Below are positions 6,844-56,125 of a stretch of DNA of 64,000 nucleotides, piece by piece (the stretch's first letter is position 1; every line of letters begins with the position of its first letter). This DNA comes from a phage. Under the pieces are notes generated by a model. That model ran no database searches and was not told where the DNA came from. It was given only the letters and a program-made list of their open reading frames with translations. The position numbers were made by a program, and so were the translations under genes. The DNA lies in the sequence record PQ327946.1; one strand, given 5' to 3'.

Positions 6844-9555
6844 TCAAAAATCGAACATATCGAACAGAGATGCTTTCTTCTCGTAATCGAGTTTCGCTGC
6901 TGATGTGAATCCTTCAAGTGGTTTAATAAATGTCTTCTCAAGGAGAACAGTGTAGTCCATCCAATGAAGTACGTCGTCTTTAATTAAATCTGTGATTTCA
7001 GTACCAGAAGGCCATGCGATACATTTATCACCGAATGGGTTTCCTTCACGTAAAGGCAGAACATATACTTTTTCACCTTCTACAACTTGCGGTGCATCGA
7101 TATTACCTTTGATAGCACGGTTATACGTCAGAATTCCACGAATATGGAATGGGCATTTGGGACCAGGGAATCCACCTACATCATATTTAGCAATGTTATT
7201 CGCAGAAGATACCGACGCGATGCTAATATAATTCAATTGACGGAATTCTTTTTCAAACTCTTTAAAATATTCTTGTAATGATTCTTCACCTTCTTGAAGC
7301 ATACGACGAATACATTCTTTAAGAGCTTTCTGTACTGCTTTAGGAGTCGAAGATTTCTGAGTCTCTAGACCCATGATTTTGAGTTTAGGCTCAGCATAAC
7401 GAGTACCTTCCATATCCCACACGTTTAATGCATAACGTTTCTTACCAGTCCAGAATCCACCAATACCTTTAGAACCGAGTGGAGGCCCGGCGATAGCTTC
7501 TCGGTCCATGAACATTAAGTGTTGTTTATTGTTCATGTATTCACACATTTCACGGAAACCTCTATCAATAGCTGGTTCCATACGTTCACGTGCAAACTTA
7601 TCTAAGAAGTCTACCCAATGGTTGGTATCACGGAATTTAGATTCACCAACCTTATCGATAATTTTATCAGCAGATACGTAAATAGAGTCTGTATCACCAT
7701 AAAGAACGAAAGCTTCACCTTCTGTACCACAAACTTCATTCAGATATTCATTAACTTTACGTTCAATCCACTGTAAAGCCATTTGACCAAATGTTGTGAT
7801 TGCAGTAGCATTACGCAAATCGTAATAACGGAACCAAACGTTTCCAAGTGCACCATAAAGCGAGTTGATGAGCAATTTACGGTTAATCTGTGCAGTCATA
7901 CCTGCAACTTCAGTACGTTGAGCTCTAAACAACATTTCATTAAGAGATTTAGCAGACAACTTTTTAATCTTTTCTTTAATCTCATCACTGAAGTCGAAAC
8001 GATAATCAACATCTAATGGTTCGTCAACAGAAAGATTAGGATTATGCAATGCCTCTTTAATTATTTCACCATTACGTTGAGCCGCAAGCATATAACCTTT
8101 ATGTTCTTTACGTTGATTAAAGACTTTAGTGATTTCAGTTGGAACAACACCGTCACGGTCTTTATAATACATCATGCCGTTAGGAGAACAACTGTACACA
8201 TCAGAAGGACGTTCAGCAACAGCGTTAATATAATCATGCAATGGAGCTACTTTAAACGTTCCTGCTATTGTTTCCGGGCTAATATTCACTTGGCGAATAA
8301 TACTTGGATACAGAGATGTAAGGTCGAAACTCATTACATATTTGTATCGATTTGGAATAGGTTCCTTAACAAAAGCGCCGGGATAAGGTTGAACCGGGTG
8401 AGAACGACCTTGTGGAATCACCTTGTTCTGCTCTTTAAGGCTATTAAAAATAATAGCATCCCATGTTTTAATTGGGCTAAACACGGATTGAATCTGTATC
8501 TTAGCATAATAACCCATGTCCAAACTCAAGTTGATGAACTGACGCTTAGCATCAATTTGCAATACACGATACACGTCGATAATGTTATAAGAAATATATC
8601 GTTGGTGATTGCTTTCACGAAGCTTAGAAATAGGGCCGTCATATTTCAGTTTACCAACGTTCAATTCAAATTCTGAAATGTAATCCAGAGAATACGACGG
8701 TTGATTGGTAAAAGAGAATTTTTTGTAAAGGTCAATGTAATCAAGAACAGAGATACCGAATAATGTAATGATTTCACGAGAACCATACATGTTTTCGATA
8801 ACTTTAACACGAGTTTTACGATGTGGTGATAAACGTTTCGCAGTAGATTCGCCAAAAATATTCTTGATTCGGTTATACACATATGGAATATCAAATGACT
8901 CAACGTTCCATCCAGTCAAAATGACAGGAGTTTTCTGTTGCCAGAAATTGAGATATTCCATCAATAATTCTTTTTCGTTATCGAACGGCATATAAATGAT
9001 TTTATCGATAATTTCGGATGGAACTTCATCACCACCTTGTTCTTGAAGCTTAGCCGCAATTTCGATAGACCATTCTTCTACATTACCATATGGAGAATTC
9101 AATAGATCAAATACGTAGAACCTGTCGTCAATTGAGTCATAATGGGTGATAGCATCAATCGGATGTTTTGCTTGTGACGGCTCAGGGAACCCATCCGGAG
9201 ATGTTACTTCGATGTCGAAGTTAGCCACACGAATTTTTGTATGATCGTATTTGATTTCATAGTTATAAGTGTCAGACAAATACGCCAATTTGAAATCGTC
9301 CATGCCAAGTGCTTCAAGACCGATATCTTCCATGCGTTTAATCCATTGGGAGGCATCACGCATATTGGCGAACAACTTACGAGTACACGGCTTACCGTAG
9401 ATATCGAAATATTTCGTAGCCTGACTTTCCGGACAATGAGCAAACAGTGATGGTTTATATTCTACTTCACGAGTACGTTCACGGCCATTAGAATCGATGT
9501 AACGTTCAAAAATTGAATCACCAATCTGTTCAACCGTTAAGTAAAATTCTTTCAT
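6844..9555 (-). CDS. 43: DNA polymerase (family B)
   Basis: 903 aa; exonuclease and polymerase motifs (FDIE, YGDTDS); N-terminus matches RB69-type gp43 as I recall it. Confidence 0.97.
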   Translation of the reverse strand: MKEFYLTVEQIGDSIFERYIDSNGRERTREVEYKPSLFAHCPESQATKYFDIYGKPCTRKLFANMRDASQWIKRMEDIGLEALGMDDFKLAYLSDTYNYEIKYDHTKIRVANFDIEVTSPDGFPEPSQAKHPIDAITHYDSIDDRFYVFDLLNSPYGNVEEWSIEIAAKLQEQGGDEVPSEIIDKIIYMPFDNEKELLMEYLNFWQQKTPVILTGWNVESFDIPYVYNRIKNIFGESTAKRLSPHRKTRVKVIENMYGSREIITLFGISVLDYIDLYKKFSFTNQPSYSLDYISEFELNVGKLKYDGPISKLRESNHQRYISYNIIDVYRVLQIDAKRQFINLSLDMGYYAKIQIQSVFSPIKTWDAIIFNSLKEQNKVIPQGRSHPVQPYPGAFVKEPIPNRYKYVMSFDLTSLYPSIIRQVNISPETIAGTFKVAPLHDYINAVAERPSDVYSCSPNGMMYYKDRDGVVPTEITKVFNQRKEHKGYMLAAQRNGEIIKEALHNPNLSVDEPLDVDYRFDFSDEIKEKIKKLSAKSLNEMLFRAQRTEVAGMTAQINRKLLINSLYGALGNVWFRYYDLRNATAITTFGQMALQWIERKVNEYLNEVCGTEGEAFVLYGDTDSIYVSADKIIDKVGESKFRDTNHWVDFLDKFARERMEPAIDRGFREMCEYMNNKQHLMFMDREAIAGPPLGSKGIGGFWTGKKRYALNVWDMEGTRYAEPKLKIMGLETQKSSTPKAVQKALKECIRRMLQEGEESLQEYFKEFEKEFRQLNYISIASVSSANNIAKYDVGGFPGPKCPFHIRGILTYNRAIKGNIDAPQVVEGEKVYVLPLREGNPFGDKCIAWPSGTEITDLIKDDVLHWMDYTVLLEKTFIKPLEGFTSAAKLDYEKKASLFDMFDF

Positions 9556-9567
9556 TTAATTTCCTTT

Positions 9568-9583
9568 AGACGAGTTATTGTCT
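9568..9583 (-). promoter_or_regulatory. Candidate gene 43 translational operator hairpin
   Basis: mRNA AGACAAUAACUCGUCU (4-bp stem, 8-nt loop) directly 5' of SD AAGGAAA and ATG, the architecture of the T4 gp43 operator. Confidence 0.4.
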
Positions 9584-9602
9584 TTTGTTTGTTGATGAAC
9601 TT

Positions 9603-9633
9603 ATTATACTCCAAATGGGACCGAAGTCCCATT
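9603..9633 (-). promoter_or_regulatory. -10 TATAAT element plus UUCG-tetraloop hairpin downstream of regA
   Basis: Minus strand AAUGGGACUUCGGUCCCAUU (8-bp stem) then TTGGAGTATAAT, shared with promoters at 27553 and 28546. Confidence 0.45.
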
Positions 9634-9636
9634 GCT

Positions 9637-10014
9637 TTAATTACCAATTGTATATTTTGCTTTCAAAGTCCAGTCATCTTTCTGTTTAAAAGAGATAACA
9701 CGGAAGTTATTAGTCAGGCCAAACAGATCTTCACGAGCAGAGTCTTCAATAACAATCAATCCCCATTCTTCAAGCAACTGAGCAATCGAATCACGTCGCT
9801 GATAGTCTTCACCGTCAATATCAACCTGACGTCCGTCCATACGCAACATTTCTTTAAAGTGGACGATATAGTACTTACCTTGCTTTTGGAGGATATGACA
9901 AGACTGGTAAAGGACTTTATCTTTGTTATTAGCGATGCCCATACGAGTCAGAGTCTCTTTGACTTTCAGAAAATCTTCAGGGTTCTTCAATTTAATTTCA
10001 ATCATTTTTACCAT
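9637..10014 (-). CDS. regA: Translational repressor RegA
   Basis: 125 aa; synteny between 43 and 62; sequence resembles T4 RegA. Confidence 0.85.
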
Positions 10015-13035: not shown

Positions 13036-13752
13036 ATGAATTATAACTCAATATACGAAAAGCTTATCGCCAATGCTAAATCAAGAAGTTTAGATGGTTA
13101 TACAGAACGTCATCACATTATACCACAATGTTTAGGTGGAAGTGATGATGCTTTAAACTTAGTAGACTTAACACCGGAAGAACATTATTTGGCACATCAA
13201 CTGTTGGTCAAAATCCATCCAGATAATGCCTCTTTAATATATGCCGCTCGTATGATGACAATATCATCTCCTAAAGCAGATAGAAGCAAAAACAAATTAT
13301 TTGGATGGCTTCGACGTAAGAATCAAGAAGTTCAAAAGAACAAAGAATTCACTGCTGAAACCCGTAAGAAAATGTCTGAAGCCGCTTTAAAGAGACCAAA
13401 GATTACCTGTCCACATTGTAATAAATCTGGATACGTTTCTAACATGCGTCGTTGGCATTTCGACAACTGTAAGCATGGACCCAACAAGTGTGTACATACT
13501 ATACCTGAATCACAAAAGCAAAAAATAAAAGACGGGTTAAAGAATGTGGTTCACACTATAGTCCAATGCCGGTATTGTAACATGGAAGGTATAAAGTGTG
13601 TTATAGCAGCACATGAAAAATTCTGTAAATCAAATCCCAATAGAAAGAAAAAAGAGGACAAGAAAATTCAGTGTCCTCATTGTGATAAAATAGGAATCCC
13701 TGCTAATATGTATCGTTGGCATTTTGATAATTGTAAACACAAGCCTCATTAA
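13036..13752 (+). CDS. HNH homing endonuclease with tandem C-terminal zinc-finger repeats
   Basis: 238 aa; HHIIPQCLGG ... EEHYLAHQ HNH motif; two repeats CPHC.K.G...NM.RWHFDNCKH; opposite strand to all neighbours. Confidence 0.75.
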   Translation: MNYNSIYEKLIANAKSRSLDGYTERHHIIPQCLGGSDDALNLVDLTPEEHYLAHQLLVKIHPDNASLIYAARMMTISSPKADRSKNKLFGWLRRKNQEVQKNKEFTAETRKKMSEAALKRPKITCPHCNKSGYVSNMRRWHFDNCKHGPNKCVHTIPESQKQKIKDGLKNVVHTIVQCRYCNMEGIKCVIAAHEKFCKSNPNRKKKEDKKIQCPHCDKIGIPANMYRWHFDNCKHKPH

Positions 13753-15688: not shown

Positions 15689-15917
15689 TACATGCTTCAG
15701 CCATTTTAAGAATAGAACCAGGAGTATCGTTGTCCATTATATTAAAGCTAAATTCAATAGCCCAGTCGGTGCAGACATGAACTGCTTTAACTTCATTGCC
15801 TTCAACGCGTAATGGCTCAATCCAATACTTGATAGCGTTCTCAAATCCATCATCGTCTTTAACGTCCATTTCAACTTCAAGTCCAAGCCCAGCATTGTTA
15901 AATTCATCTAAAGTCAT
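15660..15917 (-). CDS. 46.2: Hypothetical small acidic protein
   Basis: 85 aa ORF between 46 and 47. Confidence 0.45.
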   Translation of the reverse strand: MTLDEFNNAGLGLEVEMDVKDDDGFENAIKYWIEPLRVEGNEVKAVHVCTDWAIEFSFNIMDNDTPGSILKMAEACIEDAYNDED

Positions 15918-16933
15918 TGTGTTGCCTCAATATAAAGTTCGTTGGAATATTTGACCAGCGCTTCTCTGTCTTCGTCTGAGATATCTGGAATCGCGTCAAT
16001 ATATTCTTTAATGATATCTTGAAGTGATTTAATCTCGATTTCCTGGTCGTCATCAGATTCAACACTGTTATCAACTTTAGAAACCATACGAAGAGAGTGA
16101 ACTACTTTTTCAAGTTCAGATTCAAACTTAGTCAACTCTGAATCAATTTCTGATACTATAACACGTATGGCTAGATTAGTATAATCAGAATAATTGATTT
16201 TGCCTTTAAACGGATAAGTGATTCGTCGATGCCATGTTGTTTCATTAGGAATAAATTCCATACGTTCAACATCAGTGTCAAATACCCAGAATCCGCGTGG
16301 GTCGTTCTCATCACCTGCAGTAAGTGTCCACGGTGTCCCAATATATTTGACGTTAGCAGCTTCAGAGATTGTGTGGAAGTGGCCGGACCAGACTTGTTTA
16401 TAGGTCTTTAAGAAATCAGGTTCAAGCCCATGAGACTTCATTCCTTTATAGAAATAAAAGCCGTTCAGTTCCCAGTGACCAACACAATACGCCGCGGAAG
16501 AAGTCTTGATGTGCTCTAAGATTTCACCTGTATTTTCTTCACACATCCATGGAATGATATCAATCAGACATCCGTCAAAATCTACAGTAGTTGGATGTTC
16601 GTAAATAGTAAAGTTTTCAAATTGAGTTAACAATTCAGAAACAGTGTTAGGTGTTATTGTATTCTTAAACGCCATGTCATGGTTTCCTATCGTGACATGA
16701 ACGTGAATGCCTGCTTTAGAAATCATATCAACGATTTCACGATTGAATTCCATCGTACGATGTGTAATTGCTTTACGGACGTCAAACCAATCACCGTACT
16801 GAATCCAAGTTTTAATCCCGTGTTTCTTAGAGTATTCAATTGCTTGACGAATACCATCACGTTGAATATCTTGAACCCATGGGTCGTCTTGTTTGACTCC
16901 GATATGGAAGTCGCCTAAGTGCAAAATTTTCAT
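15914..16933 (-). CDS. 47: Recombination nuclease subunit (SbcD/Mre11-like phosphoesterase)
   Basis: 339 aa; calcineurin-like motifs GDFH, GNHD. Confidence 0.9.
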   Translation of the reverse strand: MKILHLGDFHIGVKQDDPWVQDIQRDGIRQAIEYSKKHGIKTWIQYGDWFDVRKAITHRTMEFNREIVDMISKAGIHVHVTIGNHDMAFKNTITPNTVSELLTQFENFTIYEHPTTVDFDGCLIDIIPWMCEENTGEILEHIKTSSAAYCVGHWELNGFYFYKGMKSHGLEPDFLKTYKQVWSGHFHTISEAANVKYIGTPWTLTAGDENDPRGFWVFDTDVERMEFIPNETTWHRRITYPFKGKINYSDYTNLAIRVIVSEIDSELTKFESELEKVVHSLRMVSKVDNSVESDDDQEIEIKSLQDIIKEYIDAIPDISDEDREALVKYSNELYIEATQ

Positions 16934-17215
16934 ATTATTTCCTCATTAGTTAATTCATTCTATCATCCGTTTATAAAGCAAAAAAGGAACTCCGAAGAGT
17001 TCCTATCCACATAGTACACCGTACAGAGGCTCATTTGAACTTTTAAATCGAATGGGCTTGTATGTAATAGTTCCTTCGGCTTTAGCTTTATCATAAGACT
17101 CTTTAAAACGTCTCATTCTTTCTGCTTTGCCTTTACGGATTTTATCGAAATTTTCAGAAGTCTGGGTGTTCGTCATGCATAATCACCTCTCAGAAAATAC
17201 CTAAATCGATTTCTC

Positions 17216-29632: not shown

Positions 29633-30160
29633 TTATGCGTGAACCGTCTTTAAACGTTCTTCAAATTTCCGAAGAGTACTAATACGTTCTGCTTTCTGTT
29701 TTGTATAGTTTGCAATACGTTCTGAAGTGAGAGCGTATCGTTCGTTTACTGTTTCTTTCATGAAGTCAGGGATTTCACGAGAAGCTTTAATTTCATCAAA
29801 CTTATCGAGTACTGCCTGGTCTTCAGCGATTAAATTTTCGTACATCTCGATATCTTTCTTGATAAACTCGATATCTTCCTGGGTTACTTTGGATAAACGA
29901 GATGCTTTATCCTTTTTGTACTGCTCGTTAGTTTCACGAGACCAGAATAATGTACGTTTTTTGTTAGTGTTTTTGTAGACTTCCACAATTCCAACTGAAT
30001 CGATGATAGCAATCCAATTCCAGCGAGATTTGAAAATCTGACCTCCGTCCACGGTAATCTCGTTACCATAAGCAACGTCATTAAAGAACTTGCTTTGTGC
30101 TTCAGATTTAAATTTACCGTCGTTATAATTTACCAGGTTGAAAATATCTTTAGCGTTCAT
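29633..30160 (-). CDS. Hypothetical protein
   Basis: 175 aa ORF. Confidence 0.5.
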   Translation of the reverse strand: MNAKDIFNLVNYNDGKFKSEAQSKFFNDVAYGNEITVDGGQIFKSRWNWIAIIDSVGIVEVYKNTNKKRTLFWSRETNEQYKKDKASRLSKVTQEDIEFIKKDIEMYENLIAEDQAVLDKFDEIKASREIPDFMKETVNERYALTSERIANYTKQKAERISTLRKFEERLKTVHA

Positions 30161-55675: not shown

Positions 55676-56125
55676 TTACCCCTTGTATCCGAGTTTTCTA
55701 AGACCATCCTCGGTTAGAACTCGGAATTTTATATTTCTCTTTTCAGCAACAGCTGAGGCAGCTTTCCATTTATCACAGTTCACAGACCAGGTATATATTT
55801 CATTCATATAACGTTTCTTTGCTGCAGTCGTAAGATTTGCAGGCTTAATAGGTGGTTGAGTTTCTTTCTTTGGTTTTATTTCTACAAAGAACTCTTGACC
55901 TGATGCATCCTTCATCCATATATCCATAAAGTATCGACGTTTTTTACCTTCTGCGTTACAGAAATATGGAATTACTGCTGTTTCACTACCCCATGCAATA
56001 ATTTCTGGATTTTTATCCAACCATTCGAAAAAGAATTTTTCCCAGTTTGAACGATACGTTATTTTGGTATGGTCTCCACGGTATTTTTTTAAATTTTTTG
56101 GGACCCATTTACCAGAGTAGGCCAT
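55676..56125 (-). CDS. 4: Head completion protein
   Basis: 149 aa from ATG at 56125 with SD AAGGAGG. Confidence 0.65.

Follow-up and report, generated by a model that had tools for sequence, protein, structure and literature searches.

Three stacked control elements, each of which had been described previously, very probably account for the 81-nt spacer between regA and gene 43 of the RB69-type phage analyzed here. They are a stable UUCG hairpin (hairpin 1), a -10 promoter element, and a small hairpin next to the Shine-Dalgarno (SD) sequence of gene 43 (hairpin 2), which matches the translational operator of the phage DNA polymerase, gp43. The DNA analyzed was a stretch of 64,000 nucleotides (PQ327946.1), referred to below as the window. 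The spacer occupies positions 9556-9636 and lies between two minus-strand genes. Upstream is regA (9637..10014), which encodes a translational repressor in a 125-aa ORF with the stop codon TAA at 9639..9637, as identified from the ORF list and the annotation of RB69 (AY303349). Downstream is gene 43 (6844..9555), a 903-aa DNA polymerase ORF with its AUG at 9555..9553, as identified from its match to RB69 polymerase. On the minus strand, the spacer reads UAA-AGC-AAUGGGAC-UUCG-GUCCCAUU-UGGAG-UAUAAU-AAGUUCAUCAACAAACAAA-AGAC-AAUAACUC-GUCU-AA-AGGA-AAUUAA-AUG. The analysis established the sequences and positions of the elements, showed that the locus is identical to that of RB69 and that the loop is shared with T4, and demonstrated covariation of both stems. 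Nothing at this locus is new, and it represents textbook biology of the T4 family; the spacer nevertheless contains a genuine small regulatory RNA that could be recognized from the raw sequence.

The region 9440-9760 of the window, including the regA-43 spacer, was 100% identical to RB69 AY303349, and, judged by its sequence, the window is that of an RB69-type phage (Mosigvirus). A 401-nt query around the spacer matched 159 phage records, nearly all of which were Escherichia/Shigella Mosigvirus. The 903-aa gp43 matched the PDB chains of RB69 DNA polymerase (1clq, 1waj, 1ih7 and others) over the full length with 2097 bits. The annotation of AY303349 gives the gene order 44-62-regA-43 at the homologous place and contains zero features in the regA-43 spacer. 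The T4 records AF158101/NC_000866, M10160 and KJ477686 likewise lack annotated promoters, terminators or operators in the spacer. Among the records inspected, spacer features are annotated only in fPS-90 (a predicted middle promoter) and OE5505 (a terminator predicted by ARNOLD), and in none of them is the operator annotated as such.

We compared regA-43 junctions from 80 IMG/VR contigs (retrieved via the RegA protein), T4 and two T4-like records, and eight further named phages, namely JS10 (Dhakavirus), SP18 (Gaprivervirus), Kc304 (Winklervirus), KP179 (Jiaodavirus), CIP9 (Kanagawavirus), PM2 (Bragavirus), ESCO47 (Mosigvirus) and Klebsiella phi1_146055. All 41 distinct leaders except two (L043 and L046) had a common order, which consisted of the stop codon, a stable hairpin with a tetraloop and trailing U residues, (G)GAGTATAAT, a variable spacer, a hairpin with an AAU(A/C/U)ACUC loop, an A-rich stretch, the SD sequence and the AUG. 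Both hairpins recur in T4-like phages from at least nine named genera. From 21 whole leaders in an unfitted MAFFT alignment, RNAalifold returned exactly two helices, corresponding to hairpins 1 and 2, with no other pair, and 8 of the 10 pairs carried compensatory changes. The (G)TATAAT column block was near-invariant among the relatives, and the distance from the -10 element to the AUG ranged from 43 to 61 nt.

The preliminary description had placed a TATAAT element after the UUCG hairpin, and this element is indeed present on the minus strand, at 9608..9603. It is preceded by GGAG (9612..9609), which lies between hairpin 1 and the -10 element and is kept in most of the aligned relatives. TATAAT agrees with the sigma-70 -10 consensus TAtaaT; no sigma-70 -35 element accompanies it, as TGGGAC at 17-bp spacing matches 2 of 6 positions, and the promoter scan made no call on the minus strand. 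In T4, P43 is an identified middle promoter with its start at 29933 (PMC2988021, Table 1), and the T4 region with gene 43 was found to be highly MotA-dependent by RNA-seq (PMC6024815). In the T4 sequence (NC_000866), gene 43 begins with an AUG at 29893, and the homologous TATAAT occupies 29943..29938; the experimentally mapped P43 start lies 5 nt downstream of TATAAT and 3 nt before the operator stem. The TATAAT of the window would accordingly be read as the -10 hexamer of a gene 43 middle promoter homologous to T4 P43, with a presumed dependence on MotA/AsiA. Its -30 region would fall within the DNA of hairpin 1, and transcription would start 5-7 nt past the hexamer. From the homology with T4 P43, we infer that the gene 43 transcript begins near 9598-9596 on the minus strand and carries a leader of about 41-43 nt.

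On the opposite strand, we observed a perfect MotA box, TTGCTTA, which is complementary to a conserved TAAGCAA immediately 5' of hairpin 1, and a TATATT that follows on the + strand 11 nt on. The idea of a conserved antisense promoter on the + strand was not supported. TATATT merely reflects the conserved C-terminal codons of regA (K-Y-T) and is lost wherever an extra ORF separates regA from the hairpin, whereas TTGCTTA stays.

Hairpin 1 is located just past the regA stop codon, where the preliminary description had put it without stating the strand; it lies on the minus strand at 9633..9614. It is composed of AAUGGGAC-UUCG-GUCCCAUU, with an 8-bp stem and a C(UUCG)G tetraloop at 9625..9622, and it was supported by sequence, folding and covariation. 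UUCG hairpins were first described in T4 mRNA (PMC4371310). Folded alone, hairpin 1 had a free energy of -11.7 kcal/mol (z = -4.9), and 0 of 200 shuffled sequences folded as well. In relatives, the stem sequence changes, the loops are mostly UUCG, UACG, UCCG or GAAA, and a run of U residues follows. Among 26 distinct blocks, 94% of the cells were paired with 41 double changes, values that 0 of 500 shuffles reached, in an alignment that was centred on the best stem and is thus structure-biased.

With 8 bp and 4 G-C pairs, the stem qualifies as a terminator stem-loop. The tail that follows on the sense strand is UGGAGUAUAA, or AUUUGGAG when the two outer A-U pairs are open. Its tract AUUUGG falls short of the U run of an intrinsic terminator (at least about 5 U in 8 nt on the sense strand), and the terminator scan called the hairpin 1 site only on the + strand, not on the sense strand. 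Better U tails occur in relatives, such as UUUUU in JS10 and UUAUUU in T4, both of which reach a U run of this kind. We also observed an identical module before gene 47 in the window, in which AGGAACUC-UUCG-GAGUUCCU-UUUUU is followed by TTTGCTTTA, 11 nt and TAGAAT.

These findings are best read as indicating that hairpin 1 is a terminator-type or 3'-end hairpin of the regA transcripts. A role in termination or 3' protection fits because the hairpin is stable, lies right after the stop codon, is followed by U runs in relatives and has a copy before gene 47. In the window, termination would be leaky at best and efficient termination is doubtful; the hairpin is possibly mainly a 3' stability element. 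It would end or protect the 45-44-62-regA transcripts by acting as a leaky intrinsic terminator combined with a barrier to 3' exonucleases.

The DNA of hairpin 1 overlaps positions -37..-18 of the promoter of gene 43. The palindrome may have a function as DNA. The MotA box has the consensus (a/t)(a/t)(a/t)TGCTTtA and lies 12 ± 1 bp upstream of the -10 element, and MotA is reported to tolerate deviations from it; an ACTT core occurs in T4 P46 (PMC2988021). The position of the box in the window (-35..-26) holds TGGGACTTCG, which is made up of the 5' arm and loop of hairpin 1; it matches 5 of the 10 consensus positions and has the core ACTTC at a spacing of 13 bp from TATAAT. It is conceivable, although we consider it rather unlikely, that the palindrome works mainly as DNA, with the loop-encoding (G)ACTTCG serving as the MotA box and the RNA hairpin being a by-product or a second use. 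The expected place of the ACTTC core and the ACTT precedent of P46 speak in favor of this explanation. So does the arrangement in lineages with 18-21 nt between the hairpin and the -10 element, which have a separate TGCTAT or ACTTTA box at 11-12 nt, and in fPS-90 the predicted middle promoter was annotated from GCTTCG to TATAAT. However, the spacing between the loop and the -10 element is 13 in the window, 14 in JS10, 15 in T4 and CIP9 and 17 in L017 and Kc304, and is therefore mostly outside 12 ± 1; the T4 core GCTTCG, at 15 bp, is outside it as well. Furthermore, the loops of some lineages (GAAA, UACG or UUAC) lack a CTT core, and compensatory changes keep the pairing, an outcome that selection acting only on a DNA site for a protein would not produce.

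A combined reading, to which we give the same tentative standing, is that a single 20-bp palindrome does two jobs, one as the RNA terminator or stability hairpin of the regA transcripts and the other as a DNA MotA box (ACTTCG, 13 bp from TATAAT). The comparison suggests that in compact spacers the loop DNA may double as the activator site. If this dual use is true, a separate TGCTAT box had to be gained by the lineages in which the hairpin moved to a distance of 18-21 nt. Older work on T4 P43 may already imply the dual-use reading.

Returning to hairpin 1 as a 3'-end hairpin of the regA transcripts, we considered its relation to the gene 43 leader. The preliminary description had stated that the gene 43 leader carries a UUCG hairpin. 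Its presence was verified, yet its membership of the leader is improbable, and the statement was only partly right because hairpin 1 lies upstream of the inferred +1, given that the T4 P43 start is 5 nt downstream of the homologous TATAAT. Hairpin 1 is probably outside the P43-initiated gene 43 leader and outside the operator on this positional ground, and gene 43 RNA would contain it only in the case of read-through from regA. There is an improbable alternative in which the UUCG hairpin is functional in the gene 43 leader or operator, with most of the mRNA arising by read-through and the hairpin aiding gp43 binding, folding or 5' stability after processing. In favor of it, the hairpin is tied to gene 43 rather than to regA, because it always lies within 5-21 nt of the -10 element, even with an extra ORF between the hairpin and regA; the weak U tract in the window also suggests read-through past the hairpin. 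Against it, in T4 the hairpin lies upstream of the mapped P43 start, and the published operator consists of the hairpin near the ribosome-binding site (RBS) and an RBS-overlapping sequence, without an upstream element (PMC3014915). In addition, the spacing between hairpin 1 and the operator differs greatly among relatives, with a -10-to-AUG distance of 43-61 nt, unlike a composite binding site, and a like hairpin-plus-promoter module is present before gene 47.

The RB69 gene 43 operator was reportedly described and dissected biochemically between 1997 and 2002, by Wang, Pavlov and Karam in 1997 and by Petrov and Karam in 2002. RB69 gp43 is said to bind both the RB69 and the T4 operators, and T4 gp43 to prefer its own (Wang, in 1997). 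The T4 gene 43 operator was, by repute, the target of the first SELEX experiment, that of Tuerk and Gold in 1990.

The polymerases of T4 and RB69 each act as autogenous repressors of translation (PMC535899). In autorepression, gp43 binds an operator composed of a hairpin and an RBS-overlapping sequence; the hairpin has 16 bases in RB69 and 18 bases in T4, and the loop nucleotides are common (PMC3014915). The loop sequence shared by T4 and RB69 is -UAAC-, which also emerged as the main selected sequence in the first SELEX experiment (PMC3014915). RB69 gp43 binds the RB69 operator hairpin, and the operator RNA crosslinks to the palm domain of gp43 (PMC3014915). RNA binding and DNA binding by T4 gp43 are mutually exclusive, and the RNA-binding site of RB69 gp43 seems to be within its DNA-binding region (PMC535899).

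In the window, the hairpin with a 4-bp stem and an 8-nt loop that had been noticed 5' of the SD sequence was found on the minus strand at 9583..9568, as AGAC-AAUAACUC-GUCU (stem 9583..9580/9571..9568, loop 9579..9572). The SD sequence AGGA is at 9565..9562, 6 nt ahead of the AUG; the gap from the stem to AGGA is 2 nt and that to the AUG is 12 nt. The likeness to the T4 gp43 operator that had been proposed was borne out, as the 8-nt loop AAUAACUC recurs in T4 (NC_000866), where the hairpin likewise lies after the -10 element and before the SD sequence. The published description of the RB69 operator, a 16-base hairpin with the T4-shared loop (PMC3014915), fits as well, the match having been made via the review. 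The review gives the top ten bases as identical between T4 and RB69 (PMC3014915); here, 9 of 10 were identical, with a closing pair of C-G versus U.G in T4. The hairpin at 9583..9568 is identified by its sequence with the already known, published translational operator of RB69 gp43, because it is 16 nt long, has the loop shared with T4 and lies in a spacer identical to that of RB69; binding and repression by gp43 are taken from the literature.

Folded alone, the 20-nt operator segment had a free energy of -3.2 kcal/mol (z = -5.2), and 0 of 200 shuffles were as good. The structure of the 110-nt leader region as a whole was not unusual (z = -1.3). Counting both strands, chance alone would yield about 0.44 hairpins with a 4-bp stem and an AATNACT[CG] loop per 64 kb, and evidence from the single sequence is weak for this reason. 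A second such hairpin, presumably accidental, was observed in the window at 55966-55981 on the + strand. The operator hairpin is instead settled by its position and by the comparative evidence.

For that comparison, 19 distinct operator blocks were aligned by anchoring on the loop motif alone, independently of the stem. In these blocks, 85% of the cells were paired and 27 double (compensatory) changes were counted, and 0 of 500 shuffles reached such values. When the 3' partner was slid by 1-3 columns as a control, the pairing dropped to 18-44%. The invariant columns of the 19 sequences were A10, A11, T12, A14, C15 and T16 in the loop and G18 of the closing pair. The stem variants included AGAC/GUCU, AGUC/GACU, AGUCC/GGACU, GACC/GGUC, AGCCU/GGGCU, AGACU/GGUCU and GGUCU/GGACC, and the loop consensus AAU(N)ACUC was nearly invariant (N = A, C or U). 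Conservation in relatives had been set beforehand as one point on which the operator reading could fail; the hairpin was kept and its stem covaried, and the reading survives. Across the comparative set of at least nine named genera and metagenomic contigs, the AAU(N)ACUC loop with a covarying stem of 4-5 bp is conserved well beyond T4 and RB69. A covariance scan of 9300-9900 on both strands with Rfam 15 (E ≤ 10) gave chance matches only (E = 1.6-3.5, far below the gathering scores), and AAUAACUC as a literal literature query returned unrelated papers only. With no matching Rfam family, the operator will continue to be overlooked by annotation pipelines.

In the minimum free energy (MFE) fold of the inferred leader, the operator helix was the sole structure, and the SD sequence and the AUG were unpaired. 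Neither the MFE fold nor RNAalifold predicted a larger structure or a pseudoknot in the leader. Masking of the SD sequence by RNA pairing is excluded, because the hairpin omits the SD sequence and both the SD sequence and the AUG are unpaired in this fold. Because the stem ends only 2 nt from AGGA and its pairing cannot mask the SD sequence, repression must come from a protein bound at the RBS. The hairpin AGAC-AAUAACUC-GUCU, together with the adjoining A-rich stretch and the SD sequence, would form the translational operator in a leader of about 42 nt. A gp43 molecule that is off the primer-template DNA may bind the leader RNA by reading the UAAC core of the loop on its short stem. Bound gp43 would then abut the SD sequence and block entry of the 30S subunit, and the polymerase level would be set autogenously. 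Such repression by protein occupancy agrees with the model in the literature, in which free polymerase binds the operator and competes with the 30S subunit.

A different repressor, RegA, may be envisaged as acting on the same leader in place of gp43, through the A/U-rich UAUAAUAAG and AAAUUAAAUG, but we regard this as very unlikely. RB69 RegA selects UAA-rich RNAs in SELEX, RegA sites occur at A/U-rich RBS regions (PMC3014915), and both UAAUAA and AAAUUAAAUG are present in the leader. However, RegA sites are without structure and gene 43 is classed under specific gp43 autocontrol (PMC3014915), UAUAAUAAG is at or upstream of the inferred +1, and the conserved loop with its covarying stem would be left unexplained. 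Least credible of all is the idea that hairpin 2 arose by chance or masks the RBS in a generic way, without a specific protein ligand in this phage: the chance expectation and the second copy noted above, the weak stem and the existence of T4-related polymerases that do not autoregulate (PMC3014915) can be cited for a chance stem, but the spacer is 100% identical to that of RB69, with published binding (PMC3014915), the loop is nearly invariant across genera while the stem covaries, and a hairpin that omits the SD sequence cannot mask it by pairing.

With hairpin 2 read as the gp43 operator, each of the three elements can be set beside a known system. Hairpin 1 resembles the intercistronic C(UUCG)G hairpins of T4 (Tuerk et al. 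1988) and intrinsic terminators in having a G+C-rich stem after a stop codon with U residues next to it. It differs from intrinsic terminators in that the U tract of the window is only AUUU, below the scan criteria on the sense strand. The promoter shares with T4 P43 the GGAGTATAAT element, a like distance from the operator and the AUG, and the DNA of a UUCG hairpin over the -30 region. The box core is GCTTC at 15 bp in T4 P43, compared with ACTTC at 13 bp in the window.

The gene 32 operator of T4 and RB69 is likewise one through which a replication protein represses its own translation via leader RNA (PMC3014915, PMC535899). It is a 5' pseudoknot that nucleates cooperative binding along unstructured A/U-rich RNA (PMC3014915). 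Unlike it, the gene 43 operator is a single small hairpin with a sequence-specific loop and no evidence of a pseudoknot.

The closest counterpart is the RB69 gene 43 operator, which is the same element, with a spacer that is 100% identical, a length of 16 bases, a UAAC-containing loop and a position adjoining the RBS. There was no detectable difference between the two, the match at the level of bases resting on the review description and the RB69 GenBank sequence. The T4 gene 43 operator differs in its stem, which has 5 bp (AGCCU-AAUAACUC-GGGCU) and a closing U.G pair, whereas the stem in the window has 4 bp (AGAC/GUCU) and a closing C-G pair. The distance from the hairpin to the AUG is 12 nt in the window versus 18 nt in T4, and that from the inferred +1 to the operator hairpin is about 14 nt versus about 3 nt. 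Common to both are the 8-nt loop AAUAACUC, the location downstream of the P43 -10 element and upstream of the SD sequence, a leader of about 40 nt, and the logic by which the polymerase binds the RBS region of its own mRNA.

In many relatives, regA and the UUCG hairpin are separated by a small additional ORF of 54-73 aa. Among the regA-43 junctions compared, this ORF lay at 380-595 in JS10 (L087) and SP18 (L088), at 380-601 in fPS-90 and OE5505 (L083/L084), and at 783-947 in CIP9 (L093), and it was annotated as hypothetical, with the name 'ORF43.1' in one record. It was absent in the window, RB69 and T4. Where the extra ORF was present, the block of hairpin, promoter and translational operator remained joined to gene 43 and not to regA.

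In the window, the sequence directly 5' of the tetraloop hairpin (9634..9641) contains a TAAGCAA-type motif, which reads AAAGCAA on the minus strand and TTGCTTTA on the plus strand. The TAAGCAA motif is kept at this position in many lineages and, when reverse-complemented, gives a perfect MotA box. In the window, a TATATT hexamer follows this complement on the plus strand after 11 nt. A conserved antisense promoter made up of the plus-strand TTGCTTA and TATATT is not supported, because the hexamer simply represents regA C-terminal codons and is gone where the extra ORF is inserted, while TTGCTTA stays. On the gene 43 side, the distance from the tetraloop hairpin to the -10 element was 18-21 nt in the leaders L012, L013, L016, L019, L034, L036, L037, L040 and L041, all of which showed a separate, canonical-looking MotA box, (C/A)TGCTAT, 11-12 nt from the -10 element. 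Leaders of the KP179 type (L029/L030) had ACTTTA 12 nt from the -10 element. With compact spacers, such as that of the window, the position of the MotA box is taken up by the hairpin itself.

The RegB endoribonuclease recognizes the tetranucleotide GGAG. This sequence occurs on the minus strand between the tetraloop hairpin and TATAAT (9612..9609), and it is conserved in most relatives, with occasional GUAG or GGGG variants. At this position, GGAG would be confined to read-through RNA, and it may represent either a processing site or plain promoter sequence.

A second copy of the hairpin-promoter module was found upstream of gene 47 (17004..16950, minus strand), the ORF of which (15914..16933) encodes a protein starting with MKILHLGDFH. 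On the minus strand, this copy reads, 5' to 3', AGGAACUC-UUCG-GAGUUCCU, UUUUU, TTTGCTTTA, 11 nt and TAGAAT, in which TTTGCTTTA is a near-perfect MotA box. The module looks like a homologue of the T4 middle promoter P47 placed immediately after a UUCG terminator.

Two further loci in the window were recorded. The sole other operator-like hairpin (55966..55981, plus strand; ATGG-AATTACTG-CTGT with G.U pairs) agrees with the number expected by chance, about 0.44 per window, and probably has no meaning. On the strand opposite to the replication genes, a 238-aa ORF (13036..13752, plus strand) has repeated C-x2-C ... W/RWHFDNCKH segments and, close to the N-terminus, an HNH-like motif (ERHHIIPQCLGG...EEHYLAH); this ORF looks like a free-standing homing-endonuclease-type gene.

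In Proteus phage PM2 (L092, Bragavirus), the 65 nt before the gene 43 start hold a very compact version of the leader, with a GGCC-GAAA-GGCC hairpin, UUUAUUUAUAUU and, immediately thereafter, UUCU-AAUCACUC-GGAA. Because the TATAAT block is absent between these two hairpins, the operator-like one may be reached only via read-through or from an abutting atypical -10 element (TATATT). In the regA junctions L047-L078 and L080-L081, the gp43 N-terminus was not found within 700 nt of regA. Among the more distant regA-43 junctions from IMG/VR contigs, the AAUNACUC hairpin was not found before the polymerase start in L043 and L044-L046. This absence fits the remark in a review of T4 post-transcriptional control that some T4-related polymerases either are not autoregulated or use a different loop, such as UAAA in RB49 (PMC3014915).
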